In this document: one piece after another, positions 12,097 through 64,000 of the stretch
Position numbering within the stretch: the stretch's first letter is position 1
Layout of the letters: each line of letters begins with the position of its first letter
Assembly (NCBI GenBank): GCA_963924565.1
Contig: OZ004609.1
Location: forward strand, 5,208,001-5,272,000
Direction: 5' to 3'
DNA: 64,000 nucleotides
From: Ascidiella aspersa
Lineage: Eukaryota
Translations under genes and position numbers: made by a program
The notes under the pieces: model-generated
Database searches by the model: none
What the model was told of the DNA's origin: nothing
What the model saw: the letters and a program-made list of their open reading frames with translations, nothing else

Positions 12097-12169
12097 GGAC
12101 TGACCCGGGGTTCGAACCCGGGCCCTATAGGTTACACTACCGGCGCTCTAGCCATTGTGCCATTGAGTC
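12097..12169 (-). promoter_or_regulatory. tRNA-derived Pol III internal promoter (A box + B box), family B-type 3' UTR
   Basis: A box TGGCACAATGG, B box GGTTCGAACCC, intact T-arm CCGGG/CCCGG; anticodon stem broken; resembles tRNA-Thr(TGT). Confidence 0.75.
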
Positions 12170-12266
12170 GGTTGGTGATGTCTCCGTGTTTGGAGTTGTT
12201 ATTCTAGCGTTGTGTTGGTTAGTGCGACTCGTTTTTGCTTTTTGTGCATTTGGCTGCGTTGTTGAG

Positions 12267-15200
12267 TTAATCAAGGTTATCGTCTGTGTTTAGTTGTGTT
12301 TGTATGAGGTTTATTATGTTTTTGAATTTGACTTTGATTTTCCATGTTGTTTCATTTACAAAGTCCTGTGCATTGTGTAGATATTCATTTTCAGCTGTTA
12401 GTTTGTTTTTTTCATTTATTAGGATTTGTTTTGTTAATATTAGCAGTTTTTGCTTGCTGAGGCTTTTTTCAAATTCTGCTGGGTTTTGGTTATAAATGGT
12501 TGCGTGGTGGTCGGGGATGAAGGTGTGGCCGTATTCGTTTACTGTTATTTGATTGAGTTTTGTGTAGATTTTTTTGGTGATGTTGCATTCATTTAGGAGG
12601 TGGTAGATGTTGTCTTTTGGTCCGTGGCAGAAGTTGCATCGATTAATTCTTAGTTGTCCTGTCGAAGTTCGATTTATATTTCTTGAGTTGCGGAAATCGC
12701 CCCATTTATAGCTTTGGTGTGCTGTTAAGTAGGAGGTTTCGCGTTCATTATTATTGTATAGCTTTTTGTGTTTCCGTCCGTTCAGATGTATGTGTGTCCA
12801 GTTGATTGGGATTCGATCCATTTTTAATTCTGCCGAGATTGCTTTATTTTGCATAAGGATGTTGTAAATTGCCCTCATTTTATTATGTTTCCAATCGAAG
12901 TCACCGTGTTCCTGTTGAATTTTGTTGAATTGTTCTATGATAGATTTCCAGGTGGGATTTATTTTGTCTGCTTTTGGGTAGTGGTTGCCAAAAAGATGAG
13001 GGATTATGTTTTTTCCTTTTGTTCCAAGGGCGTGCATGTACCATATATGGTATGGTTGGGTTGGCGTGTCCGTCTTTTTTAGGTGTGAAATTTTTTTCGA
13101 GTTGGGCAGCAGCGATTTTAGTTTCCAGATCCGGCATTTTGATTCCACCTTCTTGTTTTGTGTTTAAAAGTTTTAGCCGTTTAATTGGTTCAATTTTTTT
13201 TGGGTGCCACAGGAATTCGTACAGTAGTTTGTTTATTTCTTTTATTATTTTTTTTGTCGGTATGATAATACGTGCGATATGGATTATTTGTGAGATCATT
13301 AGAGCATTTATAATGTGTATTTTCCCGTAAATTGTTTGGTTGAGTTTATTGAATTTGTGTTGTATGGCTTGAATTTTGTTTTTCGCTTTTATCCAGTTAA
13401 TATTTATTAGTGAGTATTGAGTGTTGTAATGTATGCCTAGAATTTTAACTTGTTCTTTAATGTGTTGTGGGTATAATTCTAAAAGTTGTGTTTTTATGAA
13501 GGGTGTAAAGGTAATAATTTGAGTTTTGTCCATGTTAAGTTTTTGTCCTGTTATATTTTGGTAGATTTTGAGTTCCTTGAAGAGTTCCAGCGCACTGTTT
13601 TTGTCCGAGATATAAAATGTGTTGTCGTCCGCAAATTGCTGTATGACGATTTTTGTTTTGAAAAGTTTAAATCCTGTTATTTTTTTGTTCCTTTTTATCA
13701 TTTTGTTTAAGATTTCTCCTATACAGGTGTATAGCAGCATACTAAGGGGACATCCTTGGCGGAGGCCTCTTTTTATGGTGATTTTTTCAGTTAGTTCGCC
13801 GTTAACTTCCAGTTGGCTGTTTATGTCAGTGTATAATATTTCGATCCATTTGATGAGATTTTGGTTGATTCCAAAGGATGTGAGGGTTTTTATTATTAGT
13901 GCGTGGTCTACTCGGTCAAAAGCTTTCTCGAAGTCTGTGAGTACGATTGCTAGTTCCTCCGTTTTTGCTTTTGCGTACTCTATGACTGAAGTGGTATTGT
14001 AGTGGATATGTTCGATACGTCTGTCTTCTATGCCGCATTTCTGATCTATGTTTATTTTATCTTTTAATTTCTTTTTTAGCTTGTTTGTGATGATTTTGCT
14101 GAGAATTTTGTATTCTGTCGTTAGTACCGAGATCGGGCGCCAGTTTTTGATGTCTTCGGGGGGTCCTTTTTTTGGTAGAAGCTTGGTTAATGCGGTTTTC
14201 ATGGTTTCGGTCATGTTTTCCTTTAGGTATATGTTAATAAAAACTTCGTGCAGATCTTCTTTAAGATCTTTCCAAAAATGTTGATAGAATTCGGACGTAA
14301 GTCCGTCGATTCCCGGTGTTATATTCTTGTTTAGTTCTTTCATGGCTTTGGTGAGCTCTTGTGGGGTTAAATATTTTTCTTCCGTTTTTTCTCTAGCAGG
14401 TGAGTTGTTGAATTGTAGTATTTTGTCTTGTCCTTCGATGTCCAGATTGTCCTTTTTTCCCCATAGGTTGTGATAAAATTTTTGTATTTCTTTTTTTTTA
14501 TAGTTTTCTGTTTTTATGAGTGTTCCATTTTCATCTTTTAGATTTCCTATTTTTTGTTTTTCTCCGTTTGTTCTTTCCAATTGATAAAAGTGCCTGTCCG
14601 GGGTTTCGCTGTCAGTAAGATTTTTTATTCTTGCTCGAATTTTTGCTCCGAAGGTCCGTTTTCTGTCTATTTCTTTTAATTTTTCGATAGTGGTGATGTA
14701 TTCTTCGTTGTGTGTCGTATCTCTGTTATTTATTCTTGCATTTATTATTTTTAGTTTATTTTTGAGTTGATTTTCTTCTATGTTTTCCGTTCGTTTCTTT
14801 TCTATACAATATGTTATGGTTTCTTTTTTAATTTTTTTTTTAGGTGGTCCCACCACGCCAGTAGGTGTGGGTGATTGTTTTTTTTTGTTTTTTCGTTGGC
14901 TATGGTTTGTTTTATTAAGTTTGTATACTTTTCGTCTTTTAATATGTCGTTGTTTATTTTCCAGTGGTTGCTTATTTTTTTTTGGTTTGTAGTTTTGCCG
15001 AGTGTGATGTAGGGTGCTTGGGTGTGATCCGATAGAGTGTGAGTGATATGTCCTGTTTTGAAAATTTTACTTGTATTGTTATCTCTGTTGTATATACGGT
15101 CGATTCTGGTTGCCATTGTTTGGGTTATTCGCGTGTAGGTTATTGAATTTGGGTAGCGTTGTCTGAATGTGTCCTGAAGGTTTAACTGTGCTTTTGTGTC

Positions 15201-15767
15201 GCGCCATTGTTTTCGGTCCTTTGTATTATATATATTGGTATTAGTTGTATCGATGTCGTTTTCTATGAAATTGAAGTCCCCCATTAGGATGAGGTCGTCG
15301 TAATGGTTTGCGTTTTGGTTTAGGTATTTTTCTATCTCATGGATTTGGTTGGTTCTTTGTTTTATTTGTGCGTTTGCTTGGCCAGATTTTAGGTAGATAT
15401 TCAGGAGTCTTGTTTTTTTATGGTTCTTGATTTCGTTTTTGTGTGTTAGTGTAATTTCTTGTATCCAGTTTTGTAGTATTATGTTTTGTTCGATGTCCCA
15501 GTTTGAATTGATTTCTTCCTTATATAATACGAGCGTGCCTTGCCAGAAATGTTTTACATTTTCGTTTGTGTTAATGTTTAGTACGTATTTAAGTTTTTCC
15601 TTTTCGGCCCAATTTTTAAGACTGTTTTCGTTTATTTTGTGGGTTTCTTGCATAAGGCAGATATCGATTTCGTTTTGTTTGATGAATGTTCCTAGTTGGT
15701 GTAGTTTGTTGTGTATTCCGTTAATGTTTAGTGTGCATATCTTTAATGTTGTGTTGGTGTGTGACAT
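12267..15767 (-). pseudogene. E3 ORF2 (APE endonuclease-RT) with two homopolymer frameshifts
   Basis: Three overlapping ORFs; T10 versus T11 near 14832-14841 and T7 versus T6 near 13091 relative to E4; could be sequencing errors. Confidence 0.85.
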
Positions 15768-15822
15768 AATGTTCAAGAAAGAGGGGGAAGACGCAAAGAT
15801 TTAAAAGTACGATTTATATATA

Positions 15823-17686: not shown

Positions 17687-17721
<35 letters not shown>

Positions 17722-19247: not shown

Positions 19248-20006
19248 TTTTTTTTATATTATTTATTGGTTAAGAAAAATAGAAATGAAGTACAGCGAAC
19301 GAGATAAAAGTCCAACGAAAAGTGGAGAAAAGAGGATAAAACAAGTCGGTATTGCGCTAAACGATATGGCGAGAGGGTCGATAATTGAGATATTGGCGAT
19401 ATAACTGCGATTAGGGAATATAGGCGAACATATGAGATTTAAGTCGATAATGTATAAGTTTATATCAATTAGGTACAGACATACTTTAATGAATTCGCGC
19501 TTACATTCGGACGTACTAAGCATATGCATGTGCGAGTGTGTATATATCTACACTGGTATATTTGCTGGTCTGATGGGTAAGTGTTTTGTTAGTGGGTATA
19601 GTGGTGGCATAATCCGGCTGTGAGGGTAGTATGTAGTTTTAGCATTGTTGCTACGCTCGAGCATTGTATGCGCTTTGAGGGATCCAGTTGTAGGTTTATT
19701 GATATAACGGTGAAGGTAGTGTGTAGTTTGGTTATGTTTTAGGTCATAACCCTTTAGACAATGGAGATTCTGCTATGTTCAAACATGTATGTGCTTATAG
19801 TATTATCATTGCATTGCAGTTGTAATGTCGTGCTTTGGCAGTGAAGGCAGTGTGTAATTTGGTTATAATGTAGATAATAACCTTTCGGCATATGGGGAGG
19901 GTGTGGTGACTGATGACTATTTTGTCTTTGATATTAATGCTATATTGGGTTGATACGGAACATGGGATTTTACGAAATAGCACTATTTGAATAGTATTAA
20001 TTTACT

Positions 20007-20079
20007 GGACTGACCCGGGGTTCGAACCCGGGCCCTATAGGTCATACTACCGGCGCTCTAGCCATTGGGCCATTGAGTC
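20007..20079 (-). promoter_or_regulatory. tRNA-derived Pol III promoter in E4 3' UTR
   Basis: A box TGGCCCAATGG; B box GGTTCGAACCC. Confidence 0.75.
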
Positions 20080-20176: not shown

Positions 20177-23100
20177 TTAATCAAGGTTATCGTCTGTGTT
20201 TAGTTGTGTTTGTATGAGGTTTATTATGTTTTTGAATTTGACTTTGATTTTCCATGTTGTTTCATTTACAAAGTCCTGTGCATTGTGTAGATATTCATTT
20301 TCAGCTGTTAGTTTGTTTTTTTCATTTATTAGGATTTGTTTTGTTAATATTAGCAGTTTTTGCTTGCTGAGGCTTTTTTCAAATTCTGCTGGGTTTTGGT
20401 TATAAATGGTTGCGTGGTGGTCGGGGATGAAGGTGTGGCCGTATTCGTTTACTGTCATTTGATTGAGTTTTGTGTAGATTTTTTTGGTGATGTTGCATTC
20501 ATTTAGGAGGTGGTAGATGTTGTCTTTTGGTCCGTGGCAGAAGTTGCATCGATTAATTCTTAGTTGTCCTGTCGAAGTTCGATTTATATTTCTTGAGTTG
20601 CGGAAATCGCCCCATTTATAGCTTTGGTGTGCTGTTAAGTAGGAGGTTTCGCGTTCTTGATTATTGTATAGCTTTTTGTGTTTCCGTCCGTTCAGATGTA
20701 TGTGTGTCCAGTTGATTGGGATTCGATCCATTTTTAATTCTGCCGAGATTGCTTTCTTTTGCATAAGGATGTTGTAAATTGCTCTCATTTTATTATGTTT
20801 CCAATCGAAGTCACCGTGTTCCTGTTGAATTTTGTTGAATTGTTCTATGATAAATTTCCAGGTGGGATTTATTTTGTCTGCTTTTGGGTAGTGGTTGCCA
20901 AAAAGATGAGGGATTATGTTTTTTCCTTTTGTTCCAAGGGCGTACATGTACCATATATGGTATGGTTGGGTTGGCGTGTCCGTCTTTTTTAGGTGTGAAA
21001 TTTTTTCGAGTTGGGCAGCAGCGATTTTAGTTTCCAGATCCGGCATTTTGATTCCACCTTCTTGTTTTGTGTTTAAAAGTTTTAGCCGTTTAATCGGTTC
21101 AATTTTTTTTGGGTGCCACAGGAATTCGTACAGTAATTTGTTTATTTCTTTTATTATTTTTTTTGTCGGGATGATTATTCTTGCTATATGGATGGTTTGA
21201 GCTATCATCAGTGTATTTATTATATGAATTTTGCCGTAGATGGTTAAGTTAAGTTTACTATATTTGTGTTGTATTGCTGTAATTTTATTTTTTGCCTTTG
21301 TCCAGTTTGCGTTGATTATATTATTTTTTGTATTGTATAGAAGGCCTAGTATTTTGATTTGTTCTTTTATATATTGGGGATAGATCTCTGTCATTTGGGA
21401 TTTAATGAATGGAGTGATGGCTAGTATTTGTGTTTTGTTCATGTTGAGTTTTTGTCCTGTTATTTTTTCATAATTGTTTAATTCTTTAAATAGTTCGGTT
21501 GCACTGTTTTTGTTGGGTATGTAGAATGTATTGTCGTCGGCAAATTGCTGTATTTTTATTTTTGTGTTAAATATTTTGATGGCATTTATTTTCTCGTTGT
21601 TTTTGATCATTTTGTTTAGTATTTCACCAATGCAGGTGTATAACACCATGCTCAGAGGGCATCCTTGTCTAAGACCTCGTTTTATTTTGATTGCTTCTGT
21701 GAAGTCTCCGTTTATTTCGATTTTGCTGCATATATTATTGTACATTATTCTGGTCCATTTGATTAGGCTGCTCGGGATTCCAAGAGATTTTAAGGTTTTC
21801 AATATTAGCTGGTGGTCAACGCGATCGAATGCCTTTTCAAAATCCGTTGTTATTATGGCTAGTTGTTGAGATTTTGCTATTGCGTAGTTAATTGCTGCTG
21901 TTGTGTTATAGTGGATTTCTTCGATTCTTCTTTTTTCTATTCCGCATTTTTGATCAATATTTATTTTGTCTTTTAATATTTTTTTAAATTTTGCCGTTAT
22001 TACTTTGCTTAATATTTTATATTCTGTTGTCAAAAGGGAGATCGGGCGCCAGTTTTTGATGTCTTCGAGGGGTCCTTTTTTTGGTAGAAGCTTGGTTAAT
22101 GCAGTTTTCATGGTTTCGGTCATGTTTTCCTTGAGGTATATGTTAATAAAAACTTCGTGCAGATCTTCTTTAAGATCTTTCCAAAAAAGTTGATAAAATT
22201 CGGACGTAAGTCCGTCGATTCCCGGTGTTATATTCTTGTTTAGTTCTTTCATGGCTTTGGTGAGCTCTTGTGGTGTTAAGTATTTTTCTTCCGTTTTTTC
22301 TCTAGCAGGTGAGTTGTCGGATTGTAGTATTTTGTCCTGTCCTTCGATGTCCAGATTGTCCTTTTTTCCCCATAGGTTGTGATAAAATTTTTGTATTTCT
22401 TTTTTTTTATCGTTTTCCGTTTTTATGAGTGTTCCATTTTCATCTTTTAGATTTCCTATTTTTTGTTTTTCTCCGTTTTGTCTTTCCATTTGATAAAAGT
22501 GCCTGTCCGGGGTTTCGCTGTCAGTAAGATTTTTGATTCTTGCTCGAATTTTTGCTCCTAAGGTCCGTTTTCTGTCTATTTCTTTTAATTTTTCGATAAT
22601 GGTGATGTACTCTTCGTTGTGTGTCGTATCTCTGTTATTTATTCTTGCATTTATTACTTTTAGTTTATTTTTGAGTTCATTTTCTTCTATGTTTTCCGTT
22701 CGTTTCTTTTCTATACAATATGTTATGGTTTCTTTTTTAATTTTTTTTTTTAGGTGGTCCCACCACGCCAGTAGGTGTGGGTGATTGTTTTTTTTTGTTT
22801 TTTCGTTGGCTATGGTTTGTTTTATTAAGTTTGTATACTTTTCGTCTTTTAATATGTCGTTGTTTATTTTCCAGTGGTTGTTTATTTTTTTTTGGTTTGT
22901 AGTTTTGCCGAGTGTGATGTAGGGTGCTTGGGTGTGATCCGATAGAGTGTGAGGGATATGTCCTGTTTTGAAAATTTTACTTGTATTGTTATCTTTGTTG
23001 TATATACGGTCAATTCTGGTTGCCATTGTTTGGGTTATTCGCGTGTAAGTTATTGAATTTGGGTAGCGTTGTCTGAATGTGTCCTGAAGGTTTAACTGTG

Positions 23101-23662
23101 CTTTTGTGTCGCGCCATTGTTTTCGGTCCTTTGTATTATATATGTTGGTATTGGTTGTATCGATGTCGTTTTCTATGAAATTGAAGTCTCCTAATAAGAG
23201 TAGATCGTCCTTATGATGGGCGTTTTGGTTTAGGTAGTTTTCTAGTTCATGCATTTGATTTGTTCTTTGTTTAATTTGAATGTTAGCTTGTCCCGATTTT
23301 AGGTAAATGTTTATAATTCTTGTTTTGTTTTGGTGCGTGGTTTCGTTTTTGGGTGTGAGTGTGATTTCCTGGATCCAGTTTTGTAAGATTATGTTATGTT
23401 CGATGTTCCAGTTTTTCTCTATTTTATCGTTGTATATTATCGCCGTTCCTTGCCAGAAATGTTTGATGTTGTCGTTTGTATCACTGTTTATCTTGTAGTG
23501 CATTTTGTCTTTTTCGGTCCAGGTTTTTAGTCTATTCTCATTAATTTTGTGTACTTCCTGGATTGCGCATATGTCTATTTTGTTTTGTTTGATGAAGGAT
23601 GTTAACTGTTGTATTTTGTTGTTTAGTCCGTTTATATTAATAGTGCAAATTTTGAGCTCCAT
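20177..23662 (-). CDS. E4 ORF2: APE endonuclease + reverse transcriptase + C-terminal CCHC, 1161 aa
   Basis: NING, QEVH, GDFNF, RIDR, SDH; PGIDG, NWRPIS, DFEKAFDRV, QGCPLS, FADD; CNFC...H....C. Confidence 0.97.
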   Translation of the reverse strand: MELKICTININGLNNKIQQLTSFIKQNKIDICAIQEVHKINENRLKTWTEKDKMHYKINSDTNDNIKHFWQGTAIIYNDKIEKNWNIEHNIILQNWIQEITLTPKNETTHQNKTRIINIYLKSGQANIQIKQRTNQMHELENYLNQNAHHKDDLLLLGDFNFIENDIDTTNTNIYNTKDRKQWRDTKAQLNLQDTFRQRYPNSITYTRITQTMATRIDRIYNKDNNTSKIFKTGHIPHTLSDHTQAPYITLGKTTNQKKINNHWKINNDILKDEKYTNLIKQTIANEKTKKNNHPHLLAWWDHLKKKIKKETITYCIEKKRTENIEENELKNKLKVINARINNRDTTHNEEYITIIEKLKEIDRKRTLGAKIRARIKNLTDSETPDRHFYQMERQNGEKQKIGNLKDENGTLIKTENDKKKEIQKFYHNLWGKKDNLDIEGQDKILQSDNSPAREKTEEKYLTPQELTKAMKELNKNITPGIDGLTSEFYQLFWKDLKEDLHEVFINIYLKENMTETMKTALTKLLPKKGPLEDIKNWRPISLLTTEYKILSKVITAKFKKILKDKINIDQKCGIEKRRIEEIHYNTTAAINYAIAKSQQLAIITTDFEKAFDRVDHQLILKTLKSLGIPSSLIKWTRIMYNNICSKIEINGDFTEAIKIKRGLRQGCPLSMVLYTCIGEILNKMIKNNEKINAIKIFNTKIKIQQFADDNTFYIPNKNSATELFKELNNYEKITGQKLNMNKTQILAITPFIKSQMTEIYPQYIKEQIKILGLLYNTKNNIINANWTKAKNKITAIQHKYSKLNLTIYGKIHIINTLMIAQTIHIARIIIPTKKIIKEINKLLYEFLWHPKKIEPIKRLKLLNTKQEGGIKMPDLETKIAAAQLEKISHLKKTDTPTQPYHIWYMYALGTKGKNIIPHLFGNHYPKADKINPTWKFIIEQFNKIQQEHGDFDWKHNKMRAIYNILMQKKAISAELKMDRIPINWTHIHLNGRKHKKLYNNQERETSYLTAHQSYKWGDFRNSRNINRTSTGQLRINRCNFCHGPKDNIYHLLNECNITKKIYTKLNQMTVNEYGHTFIPDHHATIYNQNPAEFEKSLSKQKLLILTKQILINEKNKLTAENEYLHNAQDFVNETTWKIKVKFKNIINLIQTQLNTDDNLD

Positions 23663-23710
23663 ATTGAAAGAGAGTAAGGGGAAGGCGTAAGTTTGAAATA
23701 ATATAACGAT

Positions 23711-25309
23711 TTAAAAGAGGTCGCGTTCGAAGTTTGTCGGTTGGTCGAGGTGCTTAGGCCCTTTTAGAGGGGTTTGTGTTCGGTTTATGATTTTGCGTTT
23801 GGCTTCAAGGTCCTGGGGAGAAAGTTCATCCGCAGGCCTTTTGTTTTTGTTCTTATTTTTTTGTTGTTGATCTTCTTCTTTTGGTTCTTCTTCTTCGTCG
23901 TCGTCGTTTTCGTTTTCGTTTTTCTCGTTTGCTTCCTTATTAAATTGTTGGTTGGGTTCGGGTGGTGTGTTAGGGATTAGTAGCAGGTCAGATGGGGAAG
24001 AGGAGGAGGAGGATGAGGGGGTGGGGGAGTTGGATGGGGAGGGGGAGGGGGGGTGGTTCATGGAGAAGAAGTGGTCCGAGGTTGATACCGTTCTTCCAGA
24101 TTTTATGTCGTTTGTGTTTTGGTGTTGTTGTTCTAGGGGTATTTCTATTGGGTTTTCTTTGTTTTCATCTTTTTCGGCAATGTCGTTTTCTTGTACCGTT
24201 TCAATAGAGTCTCTTGATTCGTCAATGATGAGTATTTTTGAGCGGTCATGGTTTTCGTCGGGTTGTTCATGGTTATTTTCCAAGTTTGGTAGATGTTCGT
24301 CGTGGGGGTTTGGCGGAGGTGGTATTGTATGAGGTTGGCCGTTTTCGTCTCTTTCCTTTAGTTGTTCTCTGGTTTGTTGTAATTTTTGTAGATTTCTTTC
24401 GGTGTCTTTTTGTGGGCTGATTTCTATCCTTCTATTAAGATTAATTTGGTTTTCATGATTTTGAATAATTCTATTTATATTGATTTTTCCTCCTGGGTTG
24501 TAGCGGTTGTTTGGTGTTGAGGTCTTCTTTTGTTTTAGCGGCGGATATTCGTTTTCTTGTCTGAGGTTGAGAGGGTCTTCGGATTGTTGTTGGTAGAGTT
24601 CCTTGTGGATGGAGGATGCCTCCGGACATTCTTTTATGAAGTGTCCGGGTTTGAAACAGAGTCGGCAGATTTTTTCCGCTGGGCAGTTGTTGGCCCAGTG
24701 GCCTCGTTCGCCGCAGTTGCGGCAGACGGGCCCAAAGGTTTCGCCTGGTTTAACGGTCTGTATCCTTTGGTTTGCCACTGTTATTTCGGGTTTAATATTG
24801 ATTGATTTTACATTTTCCAAAAATATATTGACGTAGCCATTGAAAATGTCCGGTCTGCTTTTGTGTGTGCAGAAGATGGTTTTTTTTATTTGACCCCACT
24901 GCAATTTCTGGGCGATATCTTTCAGATGGTTTTCTGTCCATTCGAGTGGGACGGGGTAGAGTGATACTTTATACAGGGGTTTACTGGGTTGTTGCGATGA
25001 TATTTTTATAATATGGTGGGAGGGTAATTTTATAGATTTGCCGTTTTCCAGTTCGGCGTGCAATTTGTTCATATTGAATTTTCCTCTGTGATGGTCGCTG
25101 TTGAAGGTTAGCTGGAAGATTTTTAGTTTGCGGTTGACGGTTCTTGCTCCAATTATATGGGGGTTATATGGTTTAAGGGCGTTTTCGAGTTCGAACAATT
25201 TTAGGAAGTCAATTATAGAGAAATTGTCTATGTCGTGAATTTGGACGTTAAGCGTCCGCTGTATCCTGTAGTCAGGTCCTGTTCCTTTTAAGGGGCTGTG
25301 GTGGTCCAT
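23711..25309 (-). CDS. E4 ORF1 (family B), two CCHC knuckles
   Basis: CRNCGERGHWANNC and CRLCFKPGHFIKEC; first ATG at 25309 (frame open to a GTG at 25411). Confidence 0.9.
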   Translation of the reverse strand: MDHHSPLKGTGPDYRIQRTLNVQIHDIDNFSIIDFLKLFELENALKPYNPHIIGARTVNRKLKIFQLTFNSDHHRGKFNMNKLHAELENGKSIKLPSHHIIKISSQQPSKPLYKVSLYPVPLEWTENHLKDIAQKLQWGQIKKTIFCTHKSRPDIFNGYVNIFLENVKSINIKPEITVANQRIQTVKPGETFGPVCRNCGERGHWANNCPAEKICRLCFKPGHFIKECPEASSIHKELYQQQSEDPLNLRQENEYPPLKQKKTSTPNNRYNPGGKININRIIQNHENQINLNRRIEISPQKDTERNLQKLQQTREQLKERDENGQPHTIPPPPNPHDEHLPNLENNHEQPDENHDRSKILIIDESRDSIETVQENDIAEKDENKENPIEIPLEQQHQNTNDIKSGRTVSTSDHFFSMNHPPSPSPSNSPTPSSSSSSSPSDLLLIPNTPPEPNQQFNKEANEKNENENDDDEEEEPKEEDQQQKNKNKNKRPADELSPQDLEAKRKIINRTQTPLKGPKHLDQPTNFERDLF

Positions 25310-25675
25310 TCTTTTCGTTTGTGGTTTGTTGACTGGCGAGCGTTTATGAGAAGGAAGGAGGGGACAGGAGGATCTGAGAGATTGTGGTATAGTGAGTGTC
25401 CCTGTACTCACGGTAGGAGTAGAGGGAAGGAAGCAAAGGGGCGCGGAAGCGATACGAGTTGGAGCTGGCGAGTGATTTTGTTTCAGTATCGGCGAACGCT
25501 GCTCAGAAATTAGGCGGGAAAATGCGAAAAAATTGTCGTTTGCGGGGAAGACGCCTAGCGTCTATGTGTTAGTTGTTTTTAGTTCAAGAGAAATGGCGGG
25601 AAAAGTTTGCCGTACAGGGGGTGACGTGTGCGTGACGTCACTTGCGCGAAAAAGGACGGGGCGAAAAATTTGCAG

Positions 25676-27000: not shown

Positions 27001-27663
27001 TTTTTTTTATCTTTTTTATTGGTAAGAAAAGAAATGAAAATACAGCGAAACAGGTTAAAAGTCCAACGTAAAGTGGAGAAACGAAAAGTAATAAAATGGC
27101 ATTGCGCTAAACGACGATGGGACAGGGCGATACGATCATAGTTACAGGCGAGAAATTGCGATTTTAGTAGGTAAGCGATAAGTTAACTAATTGAGCGATA
27201 TTCCATGGTTATACATTGACTAGAACATGAACATATAAGATTTTCAATCGTTACGGTTGCGATACATAAGTGAATGTGAAGGTGTGTGTAGGCAGGTTTA
27301 CTGCTCGAAAGGATGTGGATGGGGTTGCGAATACATTTACAGTTGTGAAGGTAGTGTGTAGGTAGCGTTATTGCTACGCACGAGCACACACAAGCGGAAG
27401 TGGGGACAGTTGTATTAATTTTTATACGGGTTGCATGGGAGTGAAGGTAGTATGTATATTGCGATGCTGCGCTCGAGCATACGCGGAAATACGAGAAGGG
27501 ATATTATTAATTTGCATTTTGATAATGCAGTCAGAGTGGTTCTGCTTTGGCCTTATTCATGGAGTATTGCAATTTGGGATAAGGCAATTTTTGTTTACTG
27601 TTGTTGCGAGATATGAGACTAATATATTAATGAAATAACATTTTATAGCGGAGAAATTTTGAT

Positions 27664-27735
27664 GGTTGCTCCGGGGTTCGAACCCGTGCCCTTAGGATTG
27701 CAGAGCTGGCGTTTTAACCATTAGGCCATTCGGTC
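27664..27735 (-). promoter_or_regulatory. tRNA-derived Pol III promoter in E5 3' UTR
   Basis: A box TGGCCTAATGG; B box GGTTCGAACCC at tRNA spacing. Confidence 0.75.
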
Positions 27736-45955: not shown

Positions 45956-46027
45956 TTCGGCGGCGGGGTTTGAACCCGCGGTCTCAGGACTTGATACCCG
46001 GTGACTTAGCCACTCGGCTATTCAGTT
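45956..46027 (-). promoter_or_regulatory. tRNA-derived Pol III promoter in E7 3' UTR
   Basis: Same A and B boxes as E6. Confidence 0.75.
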
Positions 46028-50786: not shown

Positions 50787-50973
50787 TCCGTCCGGTGAGA
50801 GGGATCACTGTGGAGAAAATGAGTATGATGAGCGACTGGCCAAGGAGGAAGAATTATACATGAAATAAAAACTACGATTACGGTTATGATTATAATTACA
50901 GTTACGTTTACGATTATGATATGCTTTGTTATGGAATTGGTGTTCGTGTGAATGTGTGTGATGCCTAGCTTGG

Positions 50974-53641: not shown

Positions 53642-54311
53642 TTTTTTTTTTTTTTTTTTTTTTTTATCTTTTTTATTGGTAAGAAAAGAAATGAAAATAC
53701 AGCGAAACAGGTTAAAAGTCCAACGTAAAGTGGAGAAACGAAAAGTAATAAAATGGCATTGCGCTAAACGACGATGGGACAGGGCGATACGATCATAGAT
53801 ACAGGCGAGAAATTGCGATTTTAGTAGGTAAGCGATAAGTTAACTAATTGAGCGATATTCCATGGTTATACAATGACTAGAACATGAACATATAAGATTT
53901 TCAATCGTTACGGTTGCGATACATAAGTGAATGTGAAGGTGTGTGTAGGCAGGTTTACTGCTCGAAAGGATGTGGATGGGATTGCGAATACATTTACAGT
54001 TGTAAAGGTAGTGTGTAGGTAGCGTTATTGCTACGCACGAGCACACACACACACACACGCGGAAGTGGGGACAGTTGTATTATTTTTTATGCGGGTTGCA
54101 TGGGAGTGAAGGTAGTATGTATATTGCGATGCTGCGCTCGAGCATACGCGGAAATACGAGAAGGGATATTGTTAATTTGCATTTTGATAATGCAGTCAGA
54201 GTGGTTCTGCTTAGGCCTTATTCATGGAGTATTGCAATTTGGGATAAGGCAATTTTTGTTTACTGTTGTTGCGAGATATGAGACTAATTTATTATTAACG
54301 GAGAATTTTGA

Positions 54312-54383
54312 GGTAGCTCAGGGGTTCGAACCCGTGCCCTTAGGATTGCAGAGCTGGCGCTTTAACCATTAAGCCAATCGGTC
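54312..54383 (-). promoter_or_regulatory. tRNA-derived Pol III promoter in E8 3' UTR
   Basis: A box TGGCTTAATGG; B box GGTTCGAACCC. Confidence 0.72.
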
Positions 54384-54481: not shown

Positions 54482-57400
54482 TTACTCGGGGTTGTTTTCT
54501 ATGTTCGTTTGTGTTTGGATGTCATTTAATATGGTTTTAAATTTTACTTTTATTTTCCAAGTTGTTTCGTTTACAAATTCTTGTGGGTTATGCAGGTATT
54601 CGTTTTCTGTTGTAAGTTTGTTTTTTTCGGTTATTAGTATATGCTTTGTGAGAACCAGTAATTTTTGTTTGCTCAGACTGTGTTGAAATTCTGTTGGGTT
54701 TTGATTGTATAGGATGGCGTAGTGGTCTGGGGTAAAGGTGAATCCGTGTTCATGGGTTGCTATTTGATTAAGGTTTGTATATATTTTTTTTGTTATGTTG
54801 CATTGGCTTAGCAGGTGTTTTATATTGTCGTTGGGCCCGTGGCAGTAGTTGCATCTGTTTATTCGAATTTTTCCTGTTGATGTCCTGATTATGTTACGTG
54901 ATTTTCGGAAGTCGCCCCATTTGTATGCTTGGTGAGCCGTGAGGTAAGATGTTTGCCGTTCTGTATTATTAAATATTTTTTTTTGTTTCGGTTTGATTAA
55001 GTGTATATTTTCCCAGTTTATTGTTTTGTTTTCCATTTTTATTTCAGTATGTATTGCTTTTTTTTGGATAAGGATGTCGTAGATGGCTCGCATTTTGTTA
55101 TTTATCCAGTCGAAGTCGTTATGTGTTTCGTATATTGTATTGTAGTGTTTGATAATGAGTTGCCATTGTGGGTTAACTTGCTGCTGTTTAGGGTAGTGAT
55201 TGCCGAATAAGTGCGGGATGATGTGTTTTGCTTTAGTGCCCATTTGGTACATATACCAACTTTGAAAGGGTTGTGTGGGCTCGATGGTGTTTTTCATTTG
55301 TGATATTTTTTCCAGTTGAGCCGCAACAATTTTAGTTTCGAGGTCTGGCATTTGAATCCCACCGTTTCGTTTCGTGTTTATGAGTTTACGTCGCTTAATA
55401 GGTTCAATTTTTTTAGGGTGCCACAGGAATTCGTACAGTAATTTGTTTATTTCTTTTATTATTTTTTTTGTCGGTATGATAATACGTGCGATATGGATTA
55501 TTTGTGAGATCATTAGAGCATTTATAATGTGTATTTTCCCGTAAATTGTTTGGTTGAGTTTATTGAATTTGTGTTGTATGGCTTGTATTTTGTTTTTCGC
55601 TTTTATCCAGTTAATATTTATTAGTGAGTATTGCGTGTTGTAGTATATGCCTAGAATTTTAACTTGTTCTTTAATGTGTTGTGGGTATAGTTCTGAAAGT
55701 TGCGTTTTTATGAAGGGTGTAAAGGTAATAATTTGAGTTTTGTCCATGTTTAGTTTTTGTCCTGTTATATTTTGGTAGTTTTTGAGTTCCTTGAAGAGTT
55801 CCAGCGCACTGTTTTTGTCCGAGATATAGAATGTGTTGTCATCCGCAAATTGTTGTATAAAGATTTTTGTTTTGAATAGTTTAAAGCCTGTTATTTTTTT
55901 GTTCCTTTTTATCATTTTGTTTAAGATTTCTCCTATACAGGTGTATAGCAGCATACTAAGGGGACATCCTTGACGGAGGCCTCTTTTTATTGTGATTTTT
56001 TCAGTTAGCTCGCCGTTCACTTCCAGTTGGCTATTAATGTCTGTATATAAGATTTCTATCCATTTGATGAGGTTTTGATTGATTCCAAAAGATGTGAGGA
56101 TTTTTATGATTAGTTCGTGGTCTACTCGGTCAAAGGCTTTCTCAAAGTCTGTAAGTACGATTGCCAGTTCTTCTGATTTTGTTTTTGCGTACTCTATGGC
56201 TGAGGTGGTATTGTAATGGATATGTTCGATACGTCTGTCTTCTATGCCGCATTTCTGATCTATGTTTATTTTATCCTTTAATTTCTTTTTTAGCTTGTTT
56301 GTAATGATTTTGCTGAGAATTTTGTATTCCGTTGTTAAAACCGAAATCGGGCGCCAATTTTTAATTTCGTTTAGAGGTCCTTTTTTTGGTAGTAATTTGG
56401 TTATTGCAGTTTTCATCGTTTGCGTTAGATTTCCTTGTAGTTGTATATTAATGAAAAGCTCATGTAGATCTTCCTTTAGTTGTTGCCAAAAGTGTTGATA
56501 AAATTCCGAAGTCAGTCCATCGATTCCCGGGGTCGTGTTTTTGTTTAAATCTTTCATTGCTTTTGTTAGGTCGGTTAGTGGAAAAAATTTATCTTCTATT
56601 TTTTCTGTATTTGAGGTTTGTTCTGTTTTGAGTATTTTGTTTTGTCCGTTTATGTCTAGGTTGTCTTTTTTTCCCCATAAGTTGTAGTAGAAGTTGTGTA
56701 TTTCTGTTTTGATTTCCGCGTTGGTTTGTATTAAATTTCCTTTCTCGTCCTTGATTTTATCTATTTTTTGTTTTTCGCCGTTTTGTTTTTCTATTTGATA
56801 AAAGTGTCTGTCTGGTGTTTCATTTTCTGCTAGGTTTTTGATTCTGGAACGTATTTTCGCTCCCGCTGTGCGTTTTCTTTCCATTTCTTTCAGTTTTTCT
56901 ATAATTGATATGTATTGTTCGTTATGGGTTGTGTTTCTGCTATTCATTTTTGCATGTATTGATTTTAGTTTGTTTCTGAGTTCATTTTCTTCGATGTTTT
57001 CTGTGCGTTTTTTTTCGATGCAGTAAGTTATGGTTTCTTTTTTGATTTTCTTTTTGAGGTGTTCCCACCACGCTAGTAGGTGTGGGTGTTCGTCTTTTTT
57101 TGTTTTTTCGTGTTCTATGGTTTGTTTTATTGCGTTTGTGTATTTTTCGTCTTTCAAGATATCATTGTTTAGTTTCCAGTGTCCGTTTATAATTTTTTTT
57201 TTGTTAATTTTACCAATTGTTATGAATGGTGCTTGAGTGTGATCTGATAGTACATGTGGGATGTGTCCTGTTTGGTAGATTTTATTTGTGTTGTTGTCTT
57301 TGTTGTATATTCTGTCTATTCGTGTTGCTATTGTTGGGGTTACGCGTGTGTAGACTTTAGTATTGGGGTAGCGTTGCCTGTAGGTATCTTGTAAGCTAAG

Positions 57401-57982
57401 TTGTGTTTTTGCTTGTCGCCATTGTTTTCGGTCTTGTGTGTTGTGTGTATTTGTGTTTGTAGAGTCGCTATCGTGTTCTGTGAAGTTGAAGTCCCCCATT
57501 AGAATGAGGTCGTCGTAATAGTTTGCGTTTTGGTTTAGATATTTTTCTATCTCATGGATTTGGTTGGTTCTTTGTTTTATTTGTGCATTTGCTTGGCCAG
57601 ATTTTAGGTAGATATTCAGGAGTCTTGTTTTTTTATGGTTCTTGATTTCGTTTTTGTGTGTAAGTGTAATTTCTTGTATCCAGTTTTGTAGTATTATGTT
57701 TTGTTCGATGTCCCAGTTTGAATTGATTTCTTCCTTATATAATACGAGCGTGCCTTGCCAGAAATGTTTTACATTTTCGTTTGTGTTAATGTTTAGTATG
57801 TATTTAAGTTTTTCCTTTTCGGCCCAATTTTTAAGACTGTTTTCGTTTATTTTGTGGGTTTCTTGTATAAGGCAGATATCGATTTCGTTTTGTTTCATGA
57901 ATGTTCCTATTTGGTGTAGTTTCTTGTGTATTCCGTTAATGTTTAGTGTGCATATCTTTAATGTTGTGTTGGTGTGTGACAT
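54482..57982 (-). CDS. E8 ORF2: APE endonuclease-RT
   Basis: Complete motifs; ATG at 57982. Confidence 0.97.
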   Translation of the reverse strand: MSHTNTTLKICTLNINGIHKKLHQIGTFMKQNEIDICLIQETHKINENSLKNWAEKEKLKYILNINTNENVKHFWQGTLVLYKEEINSNWDIEQNIILQNWIQEITLTHKNEIKNHKKTRLLNIYLKSGQANAQIKQRTNQIHEIEKYLNQNANYYDDLILMGDFNFTEHDSDSTNTNTHNTQDRKQWRQAKTQLSLQDTYRQRYPNTKVYTRVTPTIATRIDRIYNKDNNTNKIYQTGHIPHVLSDHTQAPFITIGKINKKKIINGHWKLNNDILKDEKYTNAIKQTIEHEKTKKDEHPHLLAWWEHLKKKIKKETITYCIEKKRTENIEENELRNKLKSIHAKMNSRNTTHNEQYISIIEKLKEMERKRTAGAKIRSRIKNLAENETPDRHFYQIEKQNGEKQKIDKIKDEKGNLIQTNAEIKTEIHNFYYNLWGKKDNLDINGQNKILKTEQTSNTEKIEDKFFPLTDLTKAMKDLNKNTTPGIDGLTSEFYQHFWQQLKEDLHELFINIQLQGNLTQTMKTAITKLLPKKGPLNEIKNWRPISVLTTEYKILSKIITNKLKKKLKDKINIDQKCGIEDRRIEHIHYNTTSAIEYAKTKSEELAIVLTDFEKAFDRVDHELIIKILTSFGINQNLIKWIEILYTDINSQLEVNGELTEKITIKRGLRQGCPLSMLLYTCIGEILNKMIKRNKKITGFKLFKTKIFIQQFADDNTFYISDKNSALELFKELKNYQNITGQKLNMDKTQIITFTPFIKTQLSELYPQHIKEQVKILGIYYNTQYSLININWIKAKNKIQAIQHKFNKLNQTIYGKIHIINALMISQIIHIARIIIPTKKIIKEINKLLYEFLWHPKKIEPIKRRKLINTKRNGGIQMPDLETKIVAAQLEKISQMKNTIEPTQPFQSWYMYQMGTKAKHIIPHLFGNHYPKQQQVNPQWQLIIKHYNTIYETHNDFDWINNKMRAIYDILIQKKAIHTEIKMENKTINWENIHLIKPKQKKIFNNTERQTSYLTAHQAYKWGDFRKSRNIIRTSTGKIRINRCNYCHGPNDNIKHLLSQCNITKKIYTNLNQIATHEHGFTFTPDHYAILYNQNPTEFQHSLSKQKLLVLTKHILITEKNKLTTENEYLHNPQEFVNETTWKIKVKFKTILNDIQTQTNIENNPE

Positions 57983-58037
57983 GGTGTTCAAGAAAGAGGG
58001 GGAAGACGCAAAGGTTTAAAAATACGATTTATATATA

Positions 58038-60850: not shown

Positions 60851-62017
60851 GGTGGAACAAGTTACCTTATTCAAATAGAATACTTTAAAATCGCGCGGCT
60901 AAGGCTTTATGCGAAGGCCAACTTTCAAAAACGCCAGTTTACTCAATATACGATTGTATGACTTCACCACCTATATAAGGGTGTCGCCAGAGAGGCGCTG
61001 GTAAGTATTCACCATGCTATGTGGTCACGTGGTACTTCGCGTTGTTCGAAATTTCTTGTCGCGCCCCGTTCGTTTCAACCGCGACATTTTTAACAAAAAA
61101 TTAACGCTCAAAAAGCCAACTCAACATTGATCCCAATGCATATCGCGCGCTGTGCCACTTCAAAGGGCGGCCTACACGCAAGAGAGAAGCGCCCTACGGT
61201 AAGTTGGAGGAAGCGTCACCTGCGAAAGCCACGGGGGTCGGGCAGACTTGCAAAGGAGAGAGAGGAGCTGATTTTGGTTATGGGAGAGTGGGCCAGGGCT
61301 ATACATGCATTTTCGCCATCTCTTAATTTGACAAAGGACGCGATTACGCGATTTGGGGATTTTGCTACATGAATGCAATACAGTGGGGGTAGCTTGGCTA
61401 AGCGATTGATTGGTTCTAAAAAATATTCCACCGTGGTGGAGCAACTTACCTTATTCAAATAGAATACTTTAAAATCGCGCGGCTAAGGCTTTATGCGAAG
61501 GCCAACTTTCAAAAACGCCAGTTTACTCAATATACGATTGTATGACTTCACCACCTATATAAGGGTGTCGCCAGAGAGGCGCTGGTAAGTATTCACCATG
61601 CTATGTGGTCACGTGGTACTTCGCGTTGTTCGAAATTTCTTGTCGCGCCCCGTTCGTTTCAACCGCGACATTTTTAACAAAAAATTAACGCTCAAAAAGC
61701 CAACTCAACATTGATCCCAATGCATATCGCGCGCTGTGCCACTTCAAAGGGCGGCCTACACGCAAGAGAGAAGCGCCCTACGGTAAGTTGGAGGAAGCGT
61801 CACCTGCGAAAGCCACGGGGGTCGGGCAGACTTGCAAAGGAGAGAGAGGAGCTGATTTTGGTTATGGGAGAGTGGGCCAGGGCTATACATGCATTTTCGC
61901 CATCTCTTAATTTGACAAAGGACGCGATTACGCGATTTGGGGATTTTGCTACATGAATGCAATACAGTGGGGGTAGCTTGGCTAAGCGATTGATTGGTTC
62001 TAAAAAATATTCCACCG
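60851..62017 (-). repeat. SL RNA gene tandem repeat, 2 x 584 bp
   Basis: SL exons at 60866-60881 (fused to E8) and 61450-61465 (intact). Confidence 0.95.
61416..61465 (-). ncRNA. Intact spliced-leader RNA gene
   Basis: Identical to 34769-34818. Confidence 0.9.
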
Positions 62018-64000
62018 TTTTTTTCTCTCTCTATGGGTTTATTTACATTAAACAAACGATAAACAAAGGCAATATAACGAAAACGAAAAATAAGAAAGAC
62101 CAAAACAAACGAAAGAATAATTTTTTATATAGTAGAAATGATAGAAATATGCTTCGATATTTGAGCCGGTATATTTGCAGGCTATTTAATTGGGAGTCTT
62201 TTTTAAGGTAGTTTGGACTTCGCGCGGTTTTAATGTGCTGTGTTACTTGTTACTAATAGCTAGGTTTTGGACTTATATTTGTAGTTGCGTTTTATATATA
62301 TGTGTCGATGTTTCGCTCTTAGTTATAGGACTATGTTTTTAAGGGAATTTTACACGGTTGGGTGATTTGCAGTGGTATGCAGGTTGAGTTCTTATATTTA
62401 TATGGACAACCATTGTTTTATATGCTACTACATCACGGTTGGGTGGTTAGCGGTATGTACGTTGATATGTTATATGTATACTATCAGGTAATGCTTTTTG
62501 TGCCACTGCACTTTGAGCTATTTTAGTTCAAGTTGTTGTGAAAAGGTAAGATTTTCGGCGGCGGGGTTTGAACCCGCGGTCTCAGGACTTGATACCCGGT
62601 GACTTAGCCACTCGGCTATTCAGTTATTGTGAGGAGGCGGTGAAAAGAGCGTATACGAATGACTAGTTTTGAGTTAAGGGGCTGTTTAGGCTGGGCTAGC
62701 TGGAAGTCATCCGCGGTTTGCGGATAGACATTTGCGTAGGTTGCAAGGGTGGCGAAGAAAACAAAAGGCGAGGAAAACAAATGTTTTAATAAGTAATATA
62801 ACATAAGGAAATTAAATCTATCTCTTGCCAAACCGACAAGGGACGGCAAAACATTAAGTAATGGTTAGGTATTCATCCGCATTTGGCGGAGGCTTAATAT
62901 GCGTATTAAAGCAATAAATGGCTTTTAATAAACAGGATAGGTACAAAAAGGCACAGAATATATATAAAAAAGCAATGTAGAATTAAATCTGCCCCTTGCC
63001 TAACCGGCAAGGGGCGGCAAATGACTTTAGGAAATAAGTAAATAAGATATTTATTAAGTCACGTGATTTAGCCTCATGTGCTTATTCACAAAAGAGGTTT
63101 AGGCAGTGAAATTTTTAGGCTAGGTTTTTGGATGGTTGTGTATATTAGTAAAGGGTTATGACTTATAGAGCGGTTTATGGTAAGAAGATTATGATAAGTA
63201 TTATCCAGTAGAGACGGTGACGTCACATTGTTTATACACATTACAGTCACTAGGCAACAGCCAGCTGTGTTTTGTTATTGTTATTGTTTTGGTTATATCA
63301 GCTGACCATTGCCTAGTGACGGCGGTTACATTTCAGGAAAATAGGCGTAAGAAATAAGTGTACAATTGAAAGAAATGAAGAATAAAATACGAAAACAATA
63401 TGGGATTGTCAAGAAGTATTCTCATGTTGGAATATTTCTGCAAGTGATAATTTAATAGGATTATTTCATGGTGGAGGGATACAAGATTTTGGATTTACTT
63501 TTATGAGGTGAGTTTTCTCTAGTTTTACGCCTACTCAATTAATATGTACACGCGCAAAAAAATATACAGGAAATTTTTAGTAGGTAATAAAGGCAAAAAA
63601 TTATTTTTAGTGTCTTAAAAGATGGAGCACAAGAAGAAGGTATTTCAGCTCTCACAGGGACTGCCAGAGGCTAAGCGGAATAAGAAAAGGTAATAATATT
63701 TAATTTAATTATTTTTACATTATGTAATTTTTGTTTTTATGGTTAAAGTATATTAATAACAATGTCAATTAGAGCAATATGATAAATGTGATGATAATGA
63801 ACATGGTAATGAATATTAGATAAGGTTTAAAAGCTGATAAAAGAGTTATAATAGAATTGAAGCGAATTAATTAAGGGGTGAATATTTGGAAAAGTAAGGG
63901 TTATATTAATTATTTAAGCGAGAGAGATATACATATTAAAATACTATAAGATTTTCGCTGCCGCTGTTAAATTCCACAGGAGTGTCAAGGTTGTAGAACT
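62018..64000 (-). mobile_element. E9: 3' part of a family C element (3' UTR and last ORF2 codons; continues beyond window)
   Basis: Same tail and junction as E6 and E7; tRNA-like box at about 62554-62625; ORF2 stop at 63936 (…NSGSENLIVF). Confidence 0.92.

Follow-up and report, generated by a model that had tools for sequence, protein, structure and literature searches.

The window analysed here, a stretch of 64 kb of Ascidiella aspersa DNA, is an array of SL RNA genes that is broken up by LINEs of the APE+RT kind. The SL exon starts at 12 places in it, and its sequence is the same as that of the Ciona SL (PMC1488885, Table 1). The 3′ junctions of the LINEs fall at a constant place within the SL unit and, judged by their 5′ and 3′ junctions together, the elements are inserted at a fixed site of a multicopy target. 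The C3 array comprises 198 SL exons, and in 18 of these an element-type junction follows the exon. The features are compiled in Table 1.

Table 1. Features of the window (all on the minus strand; Pol III units are predictions)
Feature	Position	Strand	Remarks
3′ half of type C head	418..457	-	decayed copy, B box kept
Predicted Pol III unit, second B-type copy	11439..12169	-	transcription inferred
tRNA-derived head, type B	12097..12169	-	A box 12152-12162, B box 12108-12118; in mosaic copy
ORF2 of mosaic copy	12267..15800	-	frameshifted, spread over three frames; ORF
Predicted Pol III unit, family B	19338..20079	-	transcription inferred
tRNA-derived head, type B	20007..20079	-	A box 20062-20072, B box 20018-20028
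Family B ORF2	20177..23710	-	1177 aa, APE + RT; ORF + Pfam
Family B ORF1	23711..25561	-	CCHC zinc knuckles; ORF + Pfam
Family A pyrimidine-rich 3′ tail and short poly(A)	27001..27096	-	outside the predicted Pol III RNA
Predicted Pol III unit, family A	27093..27735	-	head + TTTT-free body to first TTTT; transcription inferred
tRNA-derived head, type A	27663..27735	-	A box 27718-27728, B box 27674-27684
Family A ORF2	27834..31367	-	1177 aa stop to stop, APE + RT; ORF + Pfam
Family A ORF1	31390..33264	-	CCHC zinc knuckles; ORF + Pfam
SL RNA gene unit, LINE target	34235..34818	-	intact, 584 bp; sequence
SL exon, then GT donor	34803-34818	-	16 nt, within 34235..34818 unit
tRNA-derived head, type C	35982..36054	-	A box 36037-36047, B box 35993-36003; TTTT 35970-35973
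Family C ORF2	37223..40831	-	1202 aa, APE + RT; ORF + Pfam
Family C ORF1	41001..42356	-	single CCHC match; ORF + Pfam
tRNA-derived head, type C	45955..46027	-	A box 46010-46020, B box 45966-45976; TTTT 45943-45946
Second family C copy, ORF2	47196..50804	-	1202 aa; ORF
Predicted Pol III unit, second A copy	53750..54383	-	transcription inferred
tRNA-derived head, type A	54311..54383	-	A box 54366-54376, B box 54322-54332
Second family A copy, ORF2	54482..58015	-	1177 aa; ORF
tRNA-derived head, type C	62553..62625	-	A box 62608-62618, B box 62564-62574; TTTT 62541-62544

The host LINE is autonomous. It is 7–8 kb long and consists of ORF1, an ORF2 with APE and RT, and poly(A). In families A, B and C, Pfam recognises PF03372 and PF00078 in ORF2 and the CCHC motif PF00098 in ORF1. 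This is the layout of L1/Tx1-type elements (APE and RT in ORF2, CCHC knuckles in ORF1), and the L1/Tx1 clade is the one to which they presumably belong. The closest database proteins are unnamed and 31–36% identical; a close relative from another species with DNA context was not found. Self-comparison of the window revealed no LTR pair. The ORF2s of families A and B are mosaics, which implies that recombination is frequent.

Behind ORF2, the LINEs of the window carry a tRNA-derived sequence, here called the head. A sequence-only reading had placed seven of them in sense orientation after ORF2 and a half copy near position 421, and all are indeed found there. The boxes were assigned by what we take to be their consensus. 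Each of the seven heads has an exact A box and an exact B box, the starts of which are 44 nt apart; this pair occurs seven times on the minus strand of the window, never on the plus strand and never in 6,000,000 nt of first-order Markov simulated DNA. In the half head, a deletion of about 300 nt took the A box, and the deletion joint recurs in contigs of two other public runs. The distance from the ORF2 stop to the head is 1,172–1,322 nt in family C versus 104–105 nt in intact A and B; that from the head to the 3′ end of the element is 605–996 nt in all 21 head-bearing elements examined. The heads of the window had been described as three different tRNA-like sequences. They can, however, be aligned without a gap, and homology is more probable than separate captures.

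An A box and a B box at tRNA spacing make up the layout of a type 2 Pol III promoter, and 44 nt is also the spacing in the tRNA-Arg genes of the host. The head is not a functional tRNA gene, as it lacks a cloverleaf with an acceptor stem and a canonical anticodon loop. Neither ARAGORN nor Rfam calls a tRNA in the window; the head D1, which lies outside the window, passes the gathering score of Rfam for tRNA (33.7 bits versus 29). When seven isoacceptors were scored with a head model, Arg(CCT) came first with 39.5 bits; lower scores were obtained for Arg-TCG (28.3), Glu (22.0) and Lys (17.6 bits). Ser tRNA genes have the D arm in common with the heads, but possess a long variable arm.

The boxes had been said to keep tRNA spacing while the acceptor and anticodon stems have decayed. 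This is correct for the boxes, their spacing and the acceptor stem: the 13 canonical box positions are kept in all 7 representative heads, and acceptor stem pairing is at chance level (18 of 49 pairs over the 7 heads, 1–5 of 7 per head). The anticodon stem, however, is lost only in part, with 4 of 5 pairs remaining in type C, and most of the T stem persists; U33 is absent from all 7 heads. The remaining fold could also be put to use without any Pol III. As part of the full-length transcript of the LINE, the hairpin of the T arm might combine with the box residues into a tRNA-like element that serves stability, export or the binding of a protein or modification enzyme. In an alignment of 11 heads the T stem is 89% paired, and two of its pairs have changed on both sides; the outer three pairs are kept in 17 of 21 cases, G30-C40 in 10 of 11, and the whole cloverleaf is 57% paired versus 22–41% for slid controls, the shuffle control ignoring relatedness. 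Such leftover pairing, however, is to be expected from tRNA ancestry, and the folding energies of the heads are ordinary (z −1.9 to +0.7). Processing of the mascRNA type, i.e., by RNase P/Z, is unlikely because the acceptor stem is at chance level. A role of the head within the LINE transcript is, in our opinion, improbable.

Conservation was compared in 7 representative heads from 6 elements. Between families, the fourfold sites of ORF2 are saturated (0.27–0.40 identity versus 0.30–0.35 expected), the exception being C and its variant Cv with 0.74. The boxes, by contrast, are 0.64–0.95 identical between families, contain no indel and keep the 44-nt spacing in all of them, while the sequence between the boxes reaches 0.27–0.73 and that of the flanks 0.20–0.63. 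The boxes thus range far above flanks and silent sites. Between C and Cv, similarity is confined to the head and the TTTT behind it (75% over 85 nt); the sequence on either side no longer aligns. Among the differences listed for contigs from three DNA-type or unlabelled runs (A and C heads), none changes a box. Of 21 heads in elements with an ORF2 of at least 1,100 aa, 20 are perfect, versus 0 of 6 in decayed copies; this control is circular in part, since any old copy has accumulated many changes.

Of course, a functionless relic, be it a fused SINE or a tRNA pseudogene, could mimic conservation if modules had been swapped recently. The mosaic ORF2s of A and B would fit, as would a decayed E-like ORF2 that bears a D1-like head and the rejection of the head-bearing families as a single clade (AU p = 0.0075). 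Swaps, however, would have brought the flanks and the inter-box sequence along, yet these have diverged and the boxes and their spacing have not. The heads also match the best host tRNA at 36–45 of 73 positions overall, but at 16–20 of 22 in the boxes. The contrast between boxes and flanks has largely refuted a relic, which we consider very improbable. A retained function, as had been proposed, is supported, because the boxes outlast flanks and silent sites and because the heads are not dispersed SINE copies (see below).

Two more distant families, located elsewhere in the genome, carry heads as well. The claim that every family has one is true of the window, not of the whole lineage. The related families F (which has an intact ORF2 of 1,221 aa), G and H lack a head, and the decayed C-like copy L087 lacks it too; the head is therefore dispensable for the lineage. 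No sense-strand box pair was found in 28 distant metagenome relatives (22–37% identity), many of which have little DNA past the ORF. Family D has two heads, and its stop codon abuts the head. The hairpin motif that is terminal in the headless F, G and H is preserved in family E, just after the stop and 270 nt before the head; in family C this hairpin is not significant (best P 0.06). The head may have started as part of a SINE-like module that became joined onto a pre-existing LINE 3′ end; since then, families would have exchanged it, and some would have lost it.

Genome searches with heads and modules did not detect a solo head; in this repeat-rich genome they yield lower bounds, and very diverged solo heads are possible. 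Head A has at least 6 genome matches, B at least 4 and C at least 9, all inside LINE copies. A tight 44-nt box pattern has 35 matches in the genome: 14 LINE heads, 17 of tRNA-Arg type, 1 of Gly type and 3 unrelated relics. A looser pattern gave 3,640 matches, and the 100 of them that were listed all lie in tandem tRNA-type arrays. A recent insertion of a dispersed SINE was rejected by the tight pattern. Also considered was that the head is the target of the LINE rather than its cargo; this was rejected because of an isolated A copy on contig C2, where a duplication of up to 34 bp surrounds the whole unit, head included, and because the stop codon of D abuts the head.

The head had further been discussed as an active SINE progenitor. 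Pol III would read through to poly(A), and ORF2p would insert the resulting RNAs of head, body and tail. The module is indeed SINE-like in layout and in its size of 605–996 nt, and family A has no T5 before the element ends. However, 2–5 TTTT runs occupy the last 160 nt of every family, the conserved tail lies beyond the end of the predicted RNA, and solo copies were not found within the bounds mentioned. The proposal is unsupported and deserves hardly any credence.

In A and B, the first TTTT behind the head was said to lie about 90 nt before poly(A), in type C almost directly after the head. The actual values are 88 nt (27093-27096) and 86 nt (19338-19341) before the 3′ end in A and B, respectively, and 74 nt past the A-box start in C. 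In one intact B copy from outside the window, a TTTT comes as early as +79. In the bodies of 0.4–0.6 kb behind the heads, TTTT is absent from 3,191 nt, versus 11.6 expected at the ORF2 rate (78 in 21,372 nt, or 3.6 per kb), in a pooled test whose boundaries were chosen after seeing the data and which includes the mutually related bodies of A, B and D. The 1,175 nt that precede the C head contain 17 TTTT, and the UTR of the headless H has 7 in 843 nt. T-runs resume 86–152 nt ahead of poly(A) in A, B, D and E, in which the pyrimidine-rich tail is conserved. That the sense strand is T-poor anyway had been raised as a caveat. T-poverty fails to explain the missing TTTT, since ORF2 is T-poorer and still has its share; dinucleotide shuffles, however, reveal no significant depletion (P 0.21–0.77).

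A short motif is repeated 2–3 times in the A, B and D bodies and is absent from those of E and C. The bodies do not share any strong fold (best window z −0.8 to −2.6), and duplex energies for antisense pairing of body and SL RNA do not exceed those of shuffles (P 0.08–1.0). Among 8 tests, an 11-nt word in B (P 0.015) and a 10-nt word in the headless F (P 0.005) emerged. Neither a ribozyme nor a snoRNA was recognised by Rfam in the window or the D, E, F and H regions.

Most plausibly, the head is a retained internal Pol III RNA cassette, although we would call this an even bet. TFIIIC would bind the boxes, and Pol III would make an RNA of about 0.55–0.9 kb; in family C, the RNA would measure about 85 nt, extending to about 0.6 kb should Pol III pass one TTTT. 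Ending ahead of the conserved tail, such an RNA would not be copied by the reverse transcriptase, which may be the reason why no solo copies were found. The weakest step is the benefit: the RNA, as a decoy or scaffold, might assist the element in trans, an idea suggested by the motif that recurs in the A, B and D bodies. A bolder version, tentative but conceivable, is that autonomous LINEs of this ascidian lineage carry, within the 3′ UTR, a Pol III gene of their own for a non-coding RNA. It would be a domesticated SINE that stops short of the tail and so cannot live off its host LINE as a parasite, its role being that of a virus-like helper or counter-silencing RNA. Overall, the interpretation in the sequence-only reading is partly supported.

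The boxes may also act at the DNA level. Bound by TFIIIC, with or without Pol III, they could be a chromatin barrier or positioning signal that shields the next SL promoter from spreading silencing of the LINE or maintains the element in an open state, any RNA being a by-product. TFIIIC-bound boxes have boundary activity (PMC3159450), and TFIIIC binds SINEs and thereby controls gene position (PMC3744447). The persistence of the boxes in the face of decaying acceptor and anticodon stems would agree with this, and in all 17 heads of the C3 array the A box lies 1,152–1,543 nt upstream of the next SL exon. This constancy, however, results from the constant distance between head and 3′ end. Nor does a barrier account for the absence of TTTT from the body. 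An SL-type array on C7 also houses headless F and ORF1-only elements, and because F has an intact ORF2 there, a barrier is possible but not required. In the vicinity of family D, finally, which carries two heads, no SL exon was found. We consider a DNA-level role rather unlikely.

LINEs are regarded as Pol II units, and tRNA-type promoters as belonging to their non-coding parasites. A tRNA promoter that is kept in the 3′ UTR of families with an ORF2 identity of only 36–72% points to a use of Pol III by the LINE itself. What looks like a stable LINE-SINE fusion would be an intermediate bearing on how SINEs gain LINE tails. The system is directly testable: copies are few, the predicted 5′ and 3′ ends are sharp, and headless sister families can serve as controls.

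The proposed internal cassette resembles several known systems and differs from each. In Helenus, Ajax and Cassandra (TRIMp3; Kojima 2024, PMC10886601), a tRNA-derived sequence within a retroelement is read as a Pol III promoter, in Helenus without experiment. There, too, conservation centres around boxes A and B and the tRNA fold is lost. TRIMp3, however, are short non-autonomous LTR elements, in which the Pol III RNA is the template for copying (PMC10886601); two LTRs, a PBS and a PPT define them. The present LINE is autonomous, showed no LTR pair, carries its promoter after ORF2, and the predicted RNA has no tail. Head, body, LINE-type tail and poly(A), 0.6–1 kb in all, recall SINE2 elements with LINE tails (PMC3747384, PMC5786205, PMC4494074), which likewise begin with a tRNA-derived head with A and B boxes. 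Unlike SINE2, the module makes up the 3′ part of a coding LINE in every case, no independent copies starting at the head were found in searches that give lower bounds, and T-runs precede the tail.

The miRNA cluster of BLV (PMC12498455) is another case of an autonomous retroelement with type 2 A/B-box promoters that yields small RNAs besides its Pol II RNA, the RNA being predicted in our case. The boxes of BLV, however, are degenerate, its B box follows the terminator, and the products are pre-miRNA hairpins (PMC12498455). Here, a whole tRNA-derived unit is present, strong hairpins were not found, and the RNA is a prediction. The miRNAs of simian foamy virus reportedly represent another internal Pol III cassette of a retrovirus.

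As APE-type LINEs with a fixed site in a multicopy small-RNA gene, the elements are reminiscent of Keno, Kibi and Koshi of the Tx1 clade (PMC4494074, PMC4640811), but their target is the ascidian SL gene. NeSL, the SL-specific family of nematodes, belongs to the group with a restriction-like endonuclease (PMC4494074, PMC4640811). A 3′ tRNA head is not mentioned in the available text of these two articles, and Repbase entries may already describe the elements. The last relative in kind is TRE5-A of Dictyostelium (PMC3159450), again a LINE tied to TFIIIC and B boxes and endowed with a modular 3′ UTR, the terminal part of which is essential there. For TRE5-A, however, the B boxes of the host are integration targets (PMC3159450), whereas here the boxes are cargo of the element.

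The tandem repeat of the window (G000:C3:5208001-5272000) has a unit of 584 bp on the minus strand, with a 16-nt exon and a following GT; the exon has the same sequence as the main Ciona spliced leader (SL) given in Table 1 of PMC1488885, which points to an ascidian host. LINEs with a CCHC-type ORF1 and an ORF2 of 1,177-1,202 aa (APE and RT) interrupt this repeat. In 284 kb of the array on contig C3, 198 exons are followed by the native unit (179), an element (18) or a one-base native variant (1). At the element 5' junctions of this array the SL donor position +5 is C, A or T, not G, in 17 of 18 cases, which might prevent splicing of the SL exon off the LINE transcript.

In the 3' UTR, behind ORF2, the LINE families A, B and C carry a tRNA-derived sequence in sense orientation, here called the head. 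All seven heads in the window have an exact A box and B box, 44 nt apart, scored against what we take to be the consensus. The box cores in the Helenus paper (PMC10886601) agree with the latter. Box pairs in the window number seven on the sense strand and none on the opposite one, and 6 Mb of simulated DNA contained none. Neither ARAGORN nor Rfam detected a tRNA in the window. The seven heads claimed by the sequence-only reading are present, and their coordinates and TTTT positions agree with ours.

Relatives beyond the window were found by an RT search of the genome. Family D (contig C8) has two tandem heads, the first of which (D1) adjoins the ORF2 stop and scores above the Rfam tRNA cut-off; each of the two identical copies of family E (C7) has a single head; none is present in families F, G and H. 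That every family has a head is therefore true of the window, but not of F, G and H. ORF2 identity to A is 72% in B, 59% in D, 49% in E, 42% in F, 41% in H and 36% in C. In an LG+G4 tree of 18 rows, 11 of them flagged for unusual letter composition, A, B, D and E group together to the exclusion of C, and the AU test rejects the union of all head-bearing families in one clade (p = 0.0075). This implies that the head was gained early and then lost in some families, that it was gained twice, or that the module was transferred. The ORF2s of A and B are mosaics, so exchange between families does occur. The heads had been taken for three different tRNA-like sequences; a common origin is favoured by the head of the decayed copy L096, which resembles both C (23/33 inter-box positions) and D1 (21/33).

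In the 308.6 Mb searched, heads A, B and C have at least 6, 4 and 9 matches. Each of these sits in the 3' UTR of a LINE; one belongs to a decayed copy on C5, and another is the half copy in the window. Among at least 13, 9 and 13 pieces matching the 3' modules of A, E and C, the genome-wide search for solo copies revealed no free head. A tight box pattern occurs at no fewer than 35 places: 14 LINE heads, 18 of tRNA-Arg or Gly type and three unrelated relics. A dispersed SINE is ruled out, since every head match lies within a LINE 3' UTR and free heads are absent from these lower-bound searches. An active SINE source, which the sequence-only reading had listed as a progenitor, likewise fits poorly and is highly improbable. 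On C2 a solitary A copy is flanked by a duplication of up to 34 bp, and between the two repeats lie its ORF1, ORF2, head, body (the TTTT-poor stretch behind the head) and poly(A); the head was thus copied along with the element. On the features compared here, the head-bearing module is neither a SINE, a TRIM nor a tRNA. At a spacing of 42-45 nt, 3,640 box pairs exist genome-wide, and all those among the matches listed fall in tandem tRNA-type arrays; very large tandem tRNA gene arrays lie on C1, C2, C3, C5 and C9.

Conservation was judged from seven representative heads of six elements. Between families, fourfold-degenerate ORF2 sites are 0.27-0.40 identical, against 0.30-0.35 expected at random; C and its variant Cv are the sole unsaturated pair (0.74). 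Across the heads, identity is 0.64-0.95 in the boxes, 0.27-0.73 between them, without any indel, and 0.20-0.63 in the 40-nt flanks; the boxes are hence more conserved than their flanks. All 13 canonical box positions are kept in all seven heads. U33 is found in none of them, and pairing amounts to 18/49 in the acceptor stem (chance about 0.30), 14/28 in the D, 16/35 in the anticodon and 17/21 in the outer T stem. In a set of 11 heads, pairing reaches 89% in the T helix and 44-57% in the remaining helices. The retained T arm would be consistent with an RNA element inside the LINE mRNA, a reading we consider unlikely. The best host tRNAs among those fetched match the heads at 36-45 of 73 positions overall and at 16-20 of 22 box positions. 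For the first 1,085 nt of the UTR, C shows 96% identity to Cv; beyond, they have only the head and its TTTT in common. Of 21 heads in elements with long ORF2, 20 are perfect, against none of six heads in decayed copies, classed by eye. Judged from sequence, this is the pattern expected from a selected type 2 promoter and neither that of a tRNA nor of a neutral relic; the head in the LINE is real and, on this evidence, under selection. A functionless relic fits poorly and is improbable.

The A box follows the ORF2 stop at 1-1,322 nt but precedes the 3' end by 605-996 nt (21/21 elements), which ties the head to the 3' end. In A, B, D and E the first TTTT follows the A box by 632, 731, 666 and 650 nt, respectively, 86-152 nt before the end, consistent with the 90 nt or so before the poly(A) noticed earlier in A and B. 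The early TTTT noticed in C was found in C and Cv, 74-75 nt past the A box; one intact B copy has a TTTT at +79. The pooled bodies, with a boundary chosen after inspection of the data, contain no TTTT in 3,191 nt versus 11.6 expected from the ORF2 rate (78 in 21,372 nt), an effect absorbed by dinucleotide shuffles (P 0.21-0.77). A T-poor sense strand, the earlier caveat, does not explain the missing runs, since the bodies are T-richer than ORF2. The last 160 nt contain 2-5 TTTT runs per family. The pyrimidine-rich tail at the 3' terminus can be aligned between A, B, D and E and, by analogy with other LINEs such as TRE5-A with its C-module (PMC3159450), is probably the RT recognition site. In E a hairpin motif lies directly past the stop, and in the headless F, G and H the same motif precedes the poly(A) by 105-218 nt, which suggests that the module was joined behind an older 3' end; in C the motif is not significant. 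In F, G and E (L032, L028, L034; the set also includes H, L038) a small hairpin with a four-base loop is followed by a purine-rich stretch, a candidate older 3'-end signal.

The most likely reading, in which we place about half of our confidence, is that an internal RNA is transcribed by Pol III from these boxes. It would end before the tail, would hence not be retrotransposed, and would be retained for its service to the element, perhaps as decoy or scaffold. A TFIIIC barrier at the boxes is a tentative alternative; it would account for the boxes but not for the TTTT-free body, and the headless F is found in an SL-type array. As to a retained function, the boxes, compared with silent sites and flanks, argue for selection. 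What the predicted Pol III RNA might do is the weakest step, its sole basis being a motif repeated in A, B and D. This motif, about 11 nt long and in many cases with a small hairpin ahead of it, recurs 2-3 times per body in these families and in decayed L093 and L096, and is kept between families.

Coordinates of features in the window and in the genome (G000; C, contigs; L, fetched loci)
Feature	Location	Remark
Half copy of head	window 418-457	3' half of C-type head, decayed element
Element 5' junctions	window 10816, 26453, 34234, 43053, 53094, 60881	minus strand
A/B mosaic elements	window 12267-18700; G000:C3:5298136, 5306525, 5314767, 5389046	swap ORF1, parts of ORF2 and head between families
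Orientation flips of SL array	G000:C3 about 5407500 and 5451300	
Full-length A copy (L022)	G000:C2:36741279-36748584	outside array, at lone SL-exon-like site; unlike array junctions
D upstream of G-type element (L027-L029)	G000:C8:18.223-18.247 Mb	immediately adjacent; between degenerate 5S rRNA array and histone genes
E-type tail	C7:14762028-14762514	without head or adjacent ORF2
Second homogeneous tandem array, 429-bp unit (L031-L036, L101)	G000:C7 about 14.77-14.83 Mb	different 16-nt SL-like exon, GTAAG donor, T-rich Sm-like site; hosts E, F and ORF1-only elements; candidate second SL RNA class
Short elements, single 330-340-aa ORF, own poly(A) (L030-L033)	G000:C7:14.75-14.79 Mb	target site shared with C7-array LINEs; likely non-autonomous ORF1-only derivatives
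Degenerate low-copy tRNA-like sequences, 44-nt box spacing	L050:5537-5610; L050:6686-6760; L051 about 5200-5270	not related to LINE heads; downstream sequence common to two of them, which may represent an old SINE
tRNA-Thr-like ARAGORN call	L021:1926-2002	weak Rfam score (31.8 bits), no neighbours

The literature searched, including the accessible text of PMC3747384, PMC5786205, PMC4494074, PMC4640811 and PMC3744447, yielded no report of a LINE with a tRNA-derived promoter in its 3' UTR, nor one of ascidian Tx1-type elements that target SL genes; Repbase and most subscription papers lay outside this search. The head, whose activity is predicted, would work like the tRNA-derived promoter of Helenus (PMC10886601) and like the Pol III cassette inside BLV (PMC12498455).
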